Below, one piece after another: positions 51,320 through 59,316 of a stretch of DNA of 64,000 bases. The notes under the pieces were generated by a model that saw only the letters and a list, made by a program, of their open reading frames with translations, was not told where the DNA came from and did no database searches. The stretch's first letter is position 1. Each line of letters opens with the position of its first letter. The position numbers and the translations under genes are program-made. Source of the DNA: Escherichia coli (lineage in GTDB: Bacteria; Pseudomonadota; Gammaproteobacteria; Enterobacterales; Enterobacteriaceae); the NCBI RefSeq assembly GCF_050320075.1, contig NZ_CP190018.1; one strand, 5' to 3'.

Positions 51320-53014
51320 TCAGAATGAGGTGCGCTTGTACTGAAGATACTGCGGCTCCCAGAATCCGCTCGAAATGTTATGTTGCAAGGTTTCCTGCGG
51401 GATATTTACGGCGACGCCATCACGTTGAGCAGCCAGAGCAACATCAAGGGCGATGGCCTGCGTCACCTGCCGGATGTCATTAATACTGGGCAACAGCGGA
51501 CCACGCCCGTCGCGCACCAGCGGCGAACAACTTGCCAGCGTGCGGCTGGCCGCCATCATCATGTTATCCGTGACGCGTGTGGCACGGCTAACCATCACGC
51601 CGAGACCCACACCAGGGAAGACATAAACATTATTGCATTGTGCAACAGGATACAATTTTCCCCCGTGGCTTACCGGCTCGAACGGGCTGCCGGTGGCGAT
51701 TAACGCGTTACCATCGGTCCAGCGCAGAATATCTTCCGGCCGTGCCTCTGCGCGCGAGGTTGGGTTGGAAAGTGGCATAACTATCGGTTGCGAACAGTGA
51801 CGATACATTTCCCCGATCACCGCTTCGCTGAATAGTCCTGGCTGCCCGCTGACGCCAATCAGAACGGACGGTTTAGCCTGGCTTACCACGTCCATCAGCG
51901 AGTACGCCTCCTGCTGACCGCCCCAGCTCGCCAAACGCGACCGCGGCTGCGCCAGCGGTGACTGGAAAGGAGCCTGATTAGTTTGATCGTCCGTAAGCAG
52001 GCCAAAGCGATCCACCATGAAAATGCGTGAACGGGCCTGCTCATCGGTCAACCCTTCAGCCACCATCTGCGTGACGATATGTTCGGCAATGCCACATCCG
52101 GCCGATCCCGCGCCCAGGAAGACTACCGTTTGGTCACATAACCGACGTTGGGAGGCCTGGCTTGCCGCCATCAGGCATCCCAAAGTCACCGCTGCGGTAC
52201 CCTGGATATCATCATTAAAACAGCAGATCTCATCACGATAGCGGGTCAGCAGCGGCATCGCCGTCTGTTGGGCAAAATCTTCGAACTGTAATAGCACGTC
52301 CGGCCAACGGCGCTTAACCGCGCGGATAAACATCTCGACGAACTCAAAATATGCGTCGCCGGTGATGCGCGGATGACGCCAACCCATATACAAAGGGTCA
52401 TTGAGCAATTGGGAATTGTTCGTTCCCGCATCCAATAAGATTGGCAGCGTATGCGACGGCTTAATACCACCGCAGGCGGTGTACAACGAAAGTTTGCCGA
52501 TAGGAATCCCCATGCCGCCAATTCCCTGATCGCCCAGGCCGAGGATCCGCTCCCCGTCAGTGACGACAATCACCGAAATATTCTGCTTTGTGGCGTTATG
52601 CAATATTTCGTCGATCATATGCCGGTCCGGCCAGGCGATGAATAATCCCCTGGCGCGGCGATAGATGTCGGAAAAGTGTTCACACGCATGTCCGACTACC
52701 GGGGTATAAATAATCGGCATCATTTCCACCAGGTGCTTGCTCACAAGGTGATAAAACAGCGTCTCGTTGGTATCCTGAATATTGCGCAGAAAGATATGAC
52801 GGGCAATATCCGACTTGATATCCAGGAATTGCTGATAGGCCCGCAGCGACTGCTCTTCAATCGTCTCAACCGCTGCGGGCAACAGCCCGCTCAGGTTAAA
52901 CATTGCGCGTTCTGTTTCAGTAAACCCGCTGCCTTTGTTCAGCAGCGGGGATTCCAGTAATACCGGGCCTGCATAAGGGATATAAAGTAAATTGTCTGTG
53001 ATTTCGTGGGTCAT
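51320..53014 (-). CDS. NAD-dependent malic enzyme paralog (MaeA/SfcA family)
   Basis: 564 aa; clear similarity to MaeA along its length ([54 protein letters not shown]) but divergent. Confidence 0.85.
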
Positions 53015-53101
53015 AACTTACGTCCGGCTAACTGATGTTGACAACAAAGTACTCTCGCCTGGCTCTCTGGATTTAATGGCATCGCACTGACGACACGTCC
53101 T

Positions 53102-54478
53102 TCAGAACAACAGGTAGTTAGCCAGCAACATGGTAAGCATGCCGCCGAGCGCCGGAATTAAGGTCCTGCGCACTATCATGAACGGTGAACATTCACCGGC
53201 TTTGCTGACCGCAATGATGATCCCTGCGACGGGAGAAATGGAACGTCCCATTCCAGCCATCAGTTGCATCGGCAGAATCATATGTACAGCGCTTTCGCCA
53301 AATTTAGTGGCGATAGCAGGCGCCATGCCGGAGAAAGAGAAAAATGCCGCAACCCCGGAGCCCGTCAGTACAGCGGTTATACCTACCAGCAGCGTCATCA
53401 CCACGGTCATGCTGGCAAAGCCAAAGCCCGCGTTCTGCACCATCTCCAACAGGTAATCCACCGCGCCGATTTTTTGCATTCCCTGCGCGTAGATATCCGC
53501 ACACACTAACAATGAAACCACGCTGGTAAACATCCCGCCCATTCCTTTAAAAAATACCTGTACACCTTTACAGCAGGCACGGAAGTCGCGTTTAACGAAC
53601 AGTTCGCAGACGAACGCCAGTATTGTGCCGACAATCATGGCGGTAACTACGTCGATTTTAATGGTGGAGATGACCAACGGGCTAAAGACCAGCACCAGAA
53701 TCACAGGGAATACAGGCAGGAAAGCATACAGCCCCGGCACTTTTTCGCTATCCTCACTCTGAGGCGTCGTGTCGTCCGCCACCTGGCTGGTCATCACGTG
53801 ACCATCTTTCTTGTCATAATATTTGGCGGTAAAGAAAATCAGCACCGACACTACCAACATAACGGCAACAGCCACCGGCATCTGATAGTGCGCAAAGTAA
53901 ACGGCGGCTTCCATACCGGCATGTTTAGCCGCCAGGTTGGCCGTGCCGACCGCCGGGCCTAAGTCCATAAAGGCGCACAGACCGATCATCGCCGCCGCCG
54001 CTGCTTTACTGACACCCAGTCGTACCAACACCGGGAAGAACGTCACTAATAACATCATCGCCAGCCCGGCGGCGCTGGAAATCGCGACGTGCAGCAACTG
54101 TGCGCAAATATACCCCACAGCCAGGATCACGTAGGGCGCCTTGATGATTTGCAGGGGACGAATGCAGACGTTCACCATTGCATTGGAGGCTTTGATATGA
54201 TCCATATAACTGGCAAAGCCGCCCGCGGCCATGATGATCAAACCGATACCGGCGATCTGTGTGGAGAGTGAATTTTTGGCAAACGTAAAGATATCCAGCC
54301 AGGTGGAACCGGTTGATTTAGCCTTACCGTAGAGAATGCTATTATCAGGATAGAAGACAGCAGTAATGGTCAGTAAAGACAAACCAGCCAGCAGCAATAC
54401 CGTCTGAGGTTGGAAGTTCTTGATGATTAACCATGCTGCAATGATAGTGATCACGATTGCGATTACAAATGCGGTCAT
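53102..54478 (-). CDS. DcuC-family anaerobic C4-dicarboxylate-type transporter
   Basis: 458 aa polytopic membrane protein; DcuC-like blocks (ISSAAGLAMMLLVTFFPVLVRLGVSKAAAAA). Confidence 0.7.
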   Translation of the reverse strand: MTAFVIAIVITIIAAWLIIKNFQPQTVLLLAGLSLLTITAVFYPDNSILYGKAKSTGSTWLDIFTFAKNSLSTQIAGIGLIIMAAGGFASYMDHIKASNAMVNVCIRPLQIIKAPYVILAVGYICAQLLHVAISSAAGLAMMLLVTFFPVLVRLGVSKAAAAAMIGLCAFMDLGPAVGTANLAAKHAGMEAAVYFAHYQMPVAVAVMLVVSVLIFFTAKYYDKKDGHVMTSQVADDTTPQSEDSEKVPGLYAFLPVFPVILVLVFSPLVISTIKIDVVTAMIVGTILAFVCELFVKRDFRACCKGVQVFFKGMGGMFTSVVSLLVCADIYAQGMQKIGAVDYLLEMVQNAGFGFASMTVVMTLLVGITAVLTGSGVAAFFSFSGMAPAIATKFGESAVHMILPMQLMAGMGRSISPVAGIIIAVSKAGECSPFMIVRRTLIPALGGMLTMLLANYLLF

Positions 54479-58541: not shown

Positions 58542-58551
58542 GGAAAGAATA

Positions 58552-59316
58552 ATGAAAAAAATCATGTTGTTGCTGGCAGGACTGGCGCTGATGGTCGACG
58601 CGCAGGCCGATACGATTATTGCAGCCAAACCGCAGGATAAACTGAGCGGAGTCAATAAATCCATTGCGCTCTACGGAAATTCATATACACATTATAACAA
58701 TAATATAAATACCCGACTGCGCGATCTCAGCCGTTCGCTGTTACCGAATGGCGCTAAAGACTATATGTTCCGGGGAATCACCATTTCTTCTGGACGTTTA
58801 GGCTGGCACCTTCCGAATCTTGAATTCCAGAATACGCTGCAAAAATGGGACGTGGTGATATTTCAGGGGAATTCAACAGAGCCTTTTTCCGCTAAAAAAG
58901 ATTCGCGTCACTATTTCACGGAGTCCGCCGTCAAGATGGCAGATATGGCTCACAAAGAGGGCTCGCGTGTGGTTTATTTTATGACCTGGGCCAGCAAGGA
59001 TAAACCCGAGCAAACTGAAAAACTGGAGAAAGCCTATCTGAATATAGCCAGTAAAACCGGGGGATACGTCGCGCCGGTCGGGCTGGCCTTCAGTAACGCA
59101 ATTAAGACGCATCCTGAAATCAATCTGTATCATAGCGATGGAAATCACCCCTCGCTGGCGGGAACCTATCTGGCTGCCAGCGTGCTGTTCGCCACGCTGT
59201 ATGACCAGTCACCGATAGGCGGCGCACTGCCTGCCGACAGCGATATGACCGAGCAAACCGCCAAAGCGCTGCAGCAGGTGGCATGGGATACCGTCCAGGA
59301 ATTCCGTGCTAACTAA
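58552..59316 (+). CDS. Exported SGNH/GDSL-like hydrolase (putative esterase)
   Basis: ATG at 58552 after GAGGA; signal peptide; DGNHPS motif resembling SGNH catalytic block V. Confidence 0.45.
   Translation: MKKIMLLLAGLALMVDAQADTIIAAKPQDKLSGVNKSIALYGNSYTHYNNNINTRLRDLSRSLLPNGAKDYMFRGITISSGRLGWHLPNLEFQNTLQKWDVVIFQGNSTEPFSAKKDSRHYFTESAVKMADMAHKEGSRVVYFMTWASKDKPEQTEKLEKAYLNIASKTGGYVAPVGLAFSNAIKTHPEINLYHSDGNHPSLAGTYLAASVLFATLYDQSPIGGALPADSDMTEQTAKALQQVAWDTVQEFRAN

Follow-up and report, generated by a model that had tools for sequence, protein, structure and literature searches.

Which compound, if any, is handled by six adjacent genes that a small minority of Escherichia coli genomes carry between two insertion sequences (IS)? 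We addressed this question for positions 51320–59316 of a 64-kb stretch of E. coli DNA, here called the window, to which all coordinates refer unless another genome or contig is named. The window matches positions 4407570–4471569 of E. coli YZLc1-3 (chicken faeces) with 100% identity. The initial annotation had read this interval as a candidate catabolic module for a dicarboxylate or conjugate. Linkage of the genes in about 19 genera, a shared operator-like element, CRP-like sites and purifying selection support this view, and we confirm that the six genes are a real and, by these signs, co-regulated functional unit. On balance, we think it probable that they form a catabolic cassette, controlled by CRP and RpiR, for a 2-substituted succinate in esterified or otherwise acylated form (a "succino" or malyl conjugate).

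Gene content of the cassette

Inspection of open reading frames (ORFs) and the RefSeq annotation place six full-length, intact ORFs within the interval:

51320–53014, minus strand: NAD-malic enzyme, MaeA paralog, last gene of the dcuC–malic enzyme unit (NF010052, 6AGS)
53102–54478, minus strand: predicted DcuC-family inner-membrane anion carrier (NF037994, TIGR00771)
54762–55649, plus strand: RpiR/MurR-family regulator (Pfam HTH_6 and SIS)
55703–57073, minus strand: fumarate-lyase-superfamily enzyme, hereafter the lyase (Pfam Lyase_1 and ADSL_C)
57492–58541, plus strand: divergent general-type outer-membrane porin, first gene of the porin–hydrolase operon (Pfam Porin_1)
58552–59316, plus strand: predicted secreted SGNH hydrolase, DUF4886 (Pfam DUF4886, fold, signal peptide)

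RefSeq annotates all six as intact coding sequences in the identical DNA of E. coli YZLc1-3 and Santai. The six ORFs of the initial annotation exist, but two of its start sites were wrong. The lyase begins at 57073 instead of 57115, and the hydrolase at 58552 (MKKIMLLL...) instead of 58444, which falls inside the porin gene; RefSeq and ortholog alignments concur on both corrections. Profile models bear out the identities that had been given to the porin, the DcuC-like carrier, the fumarate-lyase-superfamily enzyme, the second NAD-malic enzyme and the RpiR/SIS regulator.

The carrier passes the DcuC family models (NF037994, 420 bits versus a cut-off of 100; TIGR00771, 312 versus 187; TC 2.A.61). 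Its scores fall below the E. coli equivalog cut-offs for both DcuC (PRK10654, 328 < 513) and DcuD (PRK09804, 302 < 623), and it is therefore a distinct third paralog. It is closer to the DcuC of marine Alphaproteobacteria, which is 56% identical and paired with DUF4886, than to that of the Vibrio modules. The malic enzyme scores 852 bits on NF010052 (cut-off 326) and 836 bits over its full length (residues 9–563) against E. coli MaeA (SfcA; 6AGS), which belongs to the same NCBIfam subfamily, and these scores identify it as a bona fide MaeA paralog. Unlike MaeA, it is an accessory gene that lies downstream of dcuC, or of the lyase gene in Vibrio, and is apparently under CRP/RpiR control. We rejected an assignment as malolactic enzyme, since the corresponding model gives 560 bits against a cut-off of 850. 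The regulator contains the SIS (5.6e-12) and HTH_6 (4.9e-11) domains of the RpiR/MurR family and reaches no cut-off of a characterized NCBIfam equivalog (best 53 bits). Its effector may be a sugar phosphate or a sugar acid.

The porin matches Porin_1 (E=2.7e-7), scores just 35 bits on the PhoE model and ends in ...RYDF, which places it among the general porins; its Vibrio ortholog matches Porin_4. It adjoins the DUF4886 gene in 10 of the 10 genera that possess it. The hydrolase matches Pfam DUF4886 (1.3e-8), as do 24 of 25 family members, and carries a signal peptide, MKKIMLLLAGLALMVDAQA, that can be read directly from the sequence. Its AlphaFold2 model has a predicted local distance difference test score of 91.7, and the top Foldseek matches of the model are 4i8i (DUF4886), 4s1p and SGNH (acetyl-)esterases. 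The residues G42-N43-S44, with the block I Ser, and D196 and H199, the Asp-x-x-His of block V, are invariant in the ortholog alignment. The model identifies the hydrolase as an SGNH-fold enzyme with a catalytic triad, and we propose that it is a periplasmic esterase. DUF4886 is a family without a characterized member (PMC9487903). The idea that each gene merely copies a housekeeping function fails, as a close housekeeping paralog (MaeA) exists for the malic enzyme alone and not for the lyase, carrier, hydrolase, porin or regulator.

Conservation and shared control of the six genes

To place the cassette in a wider context, we scanned one genome per species with a 16-sequence alignment of the lyase, which yielded 34 loci. 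These come from Trabulsiella, Enterobacillus, Lelliottia, Serratia, Yersinia, Providencia, Citrobacter, Raoultella and Enterobacter, from three genera of the Budviciaceae, and from Vibrio, Photobacterium, Thaumasiovibrio, Aliagarivorans and Mannheimia; loci from Plesiomonas and Vibrio mimicus were added through protein look-ups. Of the 34 loci, about 30 combine the lyase with DcuC and RpiR, about 25 have DUF4886, about 22 the porin and about 20 the malic enzyme. We then clustered all ORFs within 7 kb of the modules at 38 non-redundant loci. Six families, those of the cassette, recur across 19, 18, 17, 12, 10 and 9 genera (linkage to the module was found for DcuC in 18, RpiR in 17, the porin in 10 and the malic enzyme in 9), while the seventh-ranked family reaches 4. 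Since only these six recur across genera, the limits initially drawn at 51320 and 59316 coincide exactly with those of the conserved module. An ORF with a helix-turn-helix motif at 50784–51203 is an AraC-type C-terminal fragment adjoining an IS1 copy; it was excluded because it is not conserved alongside the module.

Two gene orders occur. In Enterobacterales, the porin–DUF4886 operon diverges from the lyase gene, the lyase gene converges with rpiR, and rpiR diverges from dcuC and the malic-enzyme gene. In Vibrionaceae, the porin, DUF4886 and rpiR genes follow one another in one direction and diverge from dcuC, the lyase gene and the malic-enzyme gene. The latter three are tightly packed in Vibrio, with a 10-nt gap followed by a 1-nt overlap of the malic-enzyme start with the lyase stop. 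Thaumasiovibrio has the order dcuC–pepT–lyase, and some loci hold the regulator, carrier and lyase alone. In Budvicia, a two-subunit class-I fumarate hydratase is encoded directly upstream of, and divergent from, the lyase gene.

The E. coli copy lies between two IS1 copies in an IS-rich island, so its genes might have been thrown together by IS activity without forming a functional unit. We give this explanation next to no weight. It is already contradicted by the linkage of the same six families in the chromosomes of about 19 genera without IS elements, and shared cis-elements and purifying selection also speak against it. Between the two E. coli alleles of the cassette, the ratio of nonsynonymous to synonymous divergence (dN/dS) is 0.04–0.09 in all six genes at a dS of 0.55–0.89; all six are under strong purifying selection.

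Motif analysis of orthologous promoter regions revealed a GGGAA-N7-TTCCC dyad. Pattern searches located the following elements at the promoters of the cassette:

54601–54617: dyad GAGAA-N7-TTCCC in the divergent dcuC/rpiR promoter region, candidate RpiR operator
57174–57190: perfect dyad GGGAA-TATGCAT-TTCCC about 100 bp upstream of the lyase start, candidate RpiR operator
57344–57359: CRP-like site TGTGC-GTAAAA-TCACA upstream of the porin operon
57369–57385: dyad GAGAA-N7-TTCCC about 110 bp upstream of the porin start

In the window, the dyad gives 7 strand-matches where 0.21 are expected. When the pattern was relaxed slightly and applied across the loci, the 21 kb of intergenic DNA in the modules gave 45 matches and the other 773 kb gave 8. 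The dyad about 100–190 bp upstream of the lyase gene is kept in Citrobacter, Yersinia, Providencia, Trabulsiella, Budvicia and others. A search tolerating one mismatch placed it 5' of dcuC or the lyase gene in every divergent RpiR-bearing locus examined (Mannheimia, V. litoralis, Aliagarivorans, Leminorella, Limnobaculum and Budvicia), and it was not found in module loci without rpiR. Because its presence tracks that of rpiR, the dyad is the probable RpiR operator. A further perfect dyad, GGGAATTGTTCGTTCCC, at 52411–52427 lies inside the malic-enzyme coding sequence and could be an internal RpiR site or a chance match. A weak match at 11568 was discarded as an operator; it lies inside mtnA and is probably due to chance.

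CRP-like sites (TGTGA-N6-TCACA, at most one mismatch) number 29 in the 21 kb of module intergenic DNA and 31 in about 990 kb elsewhere, an approximately 40-fold enrichment of the kind seen in carbon-catabolic regulons. The same 21 kb show no enrichment of FNR-like sites; anaerobic control is therefore unsupported. A search of 50600–60200 against Rfam returned no riboswitch or other RNA family. Co-regulation, on which the idea of a module depended, is thus supported by the shared dyad and the enriched CRP-like sites at the module promoters.

The lyase and the proposed pathway

The lyase carries PF00206 (Lyase_1) and PF10397 (ADSL_C), and its signature loop G-G-S279-S280-T-M-P-H-K285-T-N287-P is invariant in the family. 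It passes no NCBIfam equivalog cut-off, with the XcbD, ASL and PcaB models all near 300 bits. Several specific assignments were rejected on this basis, namely PurB (adenylosuccinate lyase, ASL; TIGR00928, 228 bits versus a cut-off of 326; PRK09285, 85 versus 446), PcaB (3-carboxy-cis,cis-muconate cycloisomerase, CMLE; TIGR02426, 259 < 356; NF006554, 297 < 595; pca genes in 0 of 38 loci), class-II fumarase (TIGR00979, 39 versus 665) and aspartase (TIGR00839, 22 versus 681; 22–49 bits over the aspartase models). The closest solved relatives are Ustilago Tad1 (248 bits, about 37% identity), the solved but uncharacterized structure 3c8t and the CMLE 1re5, followed by ASLs and CreD. In a library clustered at 50% identity, the family is essentially one cluster, and the next one is 43% identical. 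The lyase thus belongs to a compact orphan subfamily in the arginine-type ASL/CMLE/Tad1/CreD clade of the fumarase/aspartase superfamily.

Comparison with 81 neighboring clusters shows that the superfamily core is retained (H106, T110, T111, Q112, D113, R156, S279, S280, K285, N287 and R318). The pocket carries family-invariant changes at N158 (His in ASLs), D161 (H/Q), W167 (F), D316 (H) and R323 (W). Position 158 is His, the general acid of the ASL R-T-H motif, in 39 of the 81 clusters, and the equally invariant N326 is Glu in 74 of them. On balance, the pocket is more cationic, from which we infer an anionic leaving group. Fumarate is the likely product, although this is not certain because the characterized enzymes closest to the lyase comprise a cycloisomerase, a decarboxylase and a nitrosuccinate lyase.

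These properties suggest a pathway, although all of its reactions, its flux direction and the identity of X (O-acyl, S or N) are our inference. The substrate would pass the outer membrane via the dedicated porin, and the secreted DUF4886 hydrolase would split off a group held by an ester bond in the periplasm, leaving a di- or tricarboxylate for import by the DcuC-type carrier. In the cytoplasm, the arginine-type lyase would catalyze a beta-elimination at the C2 C–X bond of the succinyl unit, releasing fumarate and the anionic leaving group. A housekeeping fumarase would convert fumarate to malate, and the NAD-malic enzyme of the cassette would convert malate irreversibly to pyruvate, CO2 and NADH, thereby pulling the unfavorable lyase equilibrium. 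RpiR is expected to bind the dyads in the three promoter regions in response to the substrate or an intermediate. Cleavage is thermodynamically unfavorable in this enzyme class, with Kc of about 0.007–0.011 for ASL and ArgH and similar behavior for the lyase 2SL (PMC9706529), and a decarboxylating malic-enzyme sink is therefore sensible.

The same comparisons leave room for a lyase that releases no fumarate and either acts as a cycloisomerase, forming or opening a carboxy-lactone, or decarboxylates a tricarboxylate such as trans-aconitate in the manner of Tad1, with the cassette handling a lactone or tricarboxylate ester. We consider this unlikely. In Tad1, R360 and S320 are catalytic, Q152 and T362 contact the substrate and W365 is a gatekeeper (PMC11880804). 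Tad1 heads the matches in the Protein Data Bank, ahead of 3c8t and 1re5; R318 of the lyase aligns with R360, Q112 with Q152, and S279 is conserved (Tad1 S320). PcaB, Tad1 and CreD of the arginine-type branch (PMC11880804) are 30–37% identical to the lyase and share its fold, SS loop and catalytic Arg. Nevertheless, T362 and W365 are replaced by A320 and R323, the scores remain below the family cut-offs, including those of both PcaB models, and the specificity residues D161, W167, D316, R323 and N326 differ. The cassette context is also unrelated to aromatic catabolism, itaconate synthesis or diazo biosynthesis, and none of the 38 loci contains pcaC, pcaD, pcaG, pcaH or itaconate-degradation genes. 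The recurrent malic enzyme and the fumarate hydratase in Budvicia better fit a product such as fumarate or malate. PcaB makes and breaks a C–O(acyl) bond beside a carboxylate, which provides a precedent for acyloxy elimination by the lyase.

Variant modules bear on both readings. Consotaella and Cohaesibacter encode a secreted DUF4886 (64–69% identical) and DcuC (56%) with a cytoplasmic PcaD/MenH-like alpha/beta-hydrolase and without the lyase; the Cohaesibacter module additionally has an M20 peptidase. Substitution of a PcaD-like enzyme for the lyase is reminiscent of the cycloisomerase/lactonase pair in the beta-ketoadipate pathway and counts in favor of a cycloisomerase. It also implies that the cytoplasmic bond may yield to hydrolysis or to elimination. 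In the ester reading that we favor, this interchange would be explained if the malyl unit carried its ester at C2, as elimination would then give fumarate and hydrolysis malate. Edwardsiella and Aliiruegeria have DUF4886 standing alone. Radicibacter has a DUF4886 ortholog, 60% identical and lacking a signal peptide, whose gene follows those for another ASL-clade lyase and for an ABC importer of the cystine/basic-amino-acid type; this argues that the hydrolase acts on a small, transportable molecule.

This Radicibacter arrangement resembles the yxe loci and favors another explanation, namely that the cassette salvages or repairs S-(2-succino) thiol adducts with a 2SL-like C–S lyase, recovering cysteine or sulfur rather than carbon. 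The 2SL system (yxe/scm loci) likewise clusters a Lyase_1-class enzyme with a transporter and hydrolases, and its enzyme splits N-acetyl-S-(2-succino)cysteine into fumarate and N-acetylcysteine (PMC9706529). Such a beta-elimination frees fumarate from a 2-substituted succinate; the equilibrium favors the adduct, so that a downstream sink is useful (PMC9706529). M20 peptidases accompany the module in Thaumasiovibrio and Cohaesibacter. However, the YxeL acetyltransferase, YxeP (M20) deacetylase and YxeMNO ABC importer of the 2SL loci are absent from the cassette, which instead has the porin, periplasmic SGNH hydrolase, DcuC carrier, malic enzyme and RpiR regulator. An acetyltransferase occurs in 0 of the 34 gammaproteobacterial loci and an M20 peptidase in one (Thaumasiovibrio). 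On these locus features, we did not assign the lyase as 2SL. The apparent control by CRP and RpiR points to carbon rather than sulfur, and the presence of a DcuC carrier and of a malic enzyme also counts against thiol salvage. Identity between the Radicibacter lyase and that of the cassette is only 30%, and a search seeded with it returned only unnamed alpha- and betaproteobacterial lyases. Thiol salvage thus appears improbable. S- or N-succino compounds are nevertheless possible substrates of the proposed pathway.

A plain additional set for C4-dicarboxylates (fumarate, malate or aspartate), with the lyase as a fumarase or aspartase and the hydrolase and porin as passengers, is less probable still. 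DcuC carriers and malic enzymes are classic C4-dicarboxylate functions, and the loci reduced to regulator, carrier and lyase would suit such a set. Against it stand the low fumarase and aspartase scores given above, the membership of the lyase in the ASL/CMLE clade, and the porin–DUF4886 operon, which has the operator and CRP sites of the module and recurs in 10–12 genera. Moreover, the hosts already have fumarases, AspA and Dcu carriers.

Several observations weigh against the ester-cassette reading itself. The malic enzyme, porin and hydrolase are absent from a third or more of the loci, and the lyase stands alone in two Photobacterium species. The cassette has no fumarase gene, the adjoining one in Budvicia being the exception. 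The chemistry of Tad1 decarboxylase, muconate cycloisomerase and CreD shows that the clade reaches beyond simple fumarate release. RpiR regulators usually sense phosphosugars, although the cassette encodes no kinase or sugar enzyme, and the link between the dyad and RpiR is correlative. The case is computational throughout.

Known pathways offer partial precedents. The Salmonella fra locus for fructose-asparagine comprises an asparaginase, a kinase, a SIS-domain deglycase and a GntR regulator. The cassette may follow a similar logic, in which a periplasmic hydrolase makes the nutrient anionic for Dcu-type import and cytoplasmic cleavage, but it has an SGNH hydrolase, a lyase, a malic enzyme and RpiR, and no kinase. 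E. coli nanCMS combines the NanC porin with the periplasmic SGNH esterase NanS for O-acetyl sialic acids, and the sialic-acid regulons of Vibrio and Haemophilus also use RpiR-family regulators. The likeness lies in a dedicated porin co-transcribed with a secreted SGNH esterase that would deprotect the substrate prior to inner-membrane uptake. In contrast, the porin of the cassette is of the general Porin_1/4 type, its esterase is DUF4886, and the lyase and malic enzyme stand where nan has an aldolase.

Related clusters repeat parts of this scheme. An ASL-clade lyase homolog with 39% identity lies in a cluster (locus L045, 2138–9452; GCA_036652035.1) that also encodes LysR, a Porin_4 porin, an ArgH-like lyase, a DASS carrier and a secreted alpha/beta-hydrolase with the motif GHSAG. 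This cluster may represent a sister pathway for a compound bearing two succino groups. Among the nearby lyase clusters, P0243 has an informative context, P0244 sits beside purine genes and a hydrolase and is uninformative, and the contig of P0242 is too short for gene context. Throughout the variant modules, a pore in the outer membrane recurs together with a secreted esterase, a carrier for anions and a cytoplasmic cleavage enzyme that acts by elimination or hydrolysis.

As the initial annotation had surmised, the six-gene module is not a described E. coli pathway in the literature searched, including by the six RefSeq protein accessions, which contained no account of it; the protein families are known, and their combination is undescribed in that literature. 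A bolder proposal, which we regard as rather unlikely, is that the lyase is a new C–O(acyl) or C–S "succino-lyase" with an anionic leaving group and DUF4886 its matching carboxylesterase, together forming a novel route for diesters or oligo-esters of 2-substituted succinates. Candidate substrates would then be malate oligo-esters and O-acyl-malates, with malathion and dioctyl sulfosuccinate as xenobiotic look-alikes; the literature searched held nothing usable on malathion dicarboxylic acid or polymalate hydrolase genes. If the substrate were solved, the DUF4886 branch of SGNH hydrolases would gain its first function, the fumarate-lyase superfamily a new substrate specificity, an orphan RpiR regulator a defined effector and operator, and a third DcuC paralog its substrate. 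The answer would also reveal a nutrient or xenobiotic that confers a niche advantage on a minority of E. coli, mostly from poultry among the listed records, and on many strains of Vibrio, Yersinia, Citrobacter, Proteus and Providencia. Substrates that yield fumarate and malate are important when Enterobacteriaceae colonize the gut.

Mobility, distribution and neighboring genes

The cassette is horizontally mobile and moves on islands and plasmids. In the window it lies inside an IS-rich, CP4-57-like island and is bounded by two IS1A copies, identified from the RefSeq annotation and a comparison of inverted repeats:

49896–50663, minus strand: IS1A copy, left boundary of the cassette
60168–60935, plus strand: IS1A copy, right boundary of the cassette

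The two copies, 768 nt each, are inverted and 100% identical. No 9-bp target duplication was found around either copy or around the pair, and we therefore did not classify the segment as an IS1 composite transposon. The IS1-bracketed segment is also present on the plasmids pMRE162 and NZ_CP061751.1, diverged versions of the cassette occur on Proteus, Providencia, Morganella and Vibrio plasmids, and the V. mimicus copy lies within a YagK/RadC-type island.

Among complete E. coli genomes, 80–81 of 5426 (about 1.5%) carry the cassette. The allele of the window accounts for 64–65 of these, with chicken or duck as most of the listed hosts, and its proteins are 95–99% identical to those of Trabulsiella odontotermitis. 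A second allele, about 85% identical in DNA, occurs in 16 E. coli genomes, mostly from humans; a gene flanking it is 90% identical to its counterpart in Enterobacillus tribolii. If the lyase were a succino-lyase for the esters named above, selection by such compounds could lie behind the recent spread, on IS1 and plasmids, in E. coli associated with poultry, from relatives in gut bacteria of termites and flour beetles.

Decayed versions occur as well. In three E. coli versions the match ends about 60 bp into the DUF4886 gene, and in another just the porin 3' end and DUF4886 are left. About 54 Klebsiella plasmids match the module, and 7 of the 7 listed matches are the same piece of about 1.5 kb. 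On the K. pneumoniae IncFIB/IncFII plasmid NZ_CP041094.1 (locus L053, 7988–9583), the one plasmid examined, a truncated dcuC abuts a truncated DUF4886 gene, about 72% identical to the module. This piece appears to be a dcuC'–'DUF4886 deletion relic rather than a variant module.

In E. coli O157:H16 Santai, another strain with the cassette, the same island region holds an IS66-flanked trio of LysR, a distant DcuC (24% identical) and an amidohydrolase (locus L047, 2467–6114), which is another carrier-plus-hydrolase module. Just left of the bounding IS1 in the window, positions 45639–49793 contain an orphan ugpB-like binding-protein gene and a 447-aa "esterase-like activity of phytase family protein", split by a degraded IS110; these genes are not conserved with the module in other genera. 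To the right, positions 60942–64000 belong to a large gene for an autotransporter, which measures 3.5 kb in the reference strain; it starts directly after the second IS1 and runs past the window end. Farther away, an mtnK–mtnA–aldolase cluster for methylthioribose/5-deoxyribose-type salvage, accessory in E. coli, occupies 6503–13374, and the adjoining GRP sugar-transporter gene is interrupted by the IS66-family element ISCro1. A defense cluster at 15532–23553 comprises McrB/McrC and an Alw26I/Eco31I/Esp3I-family type IIS restriction enzyme with two methyltransferases.

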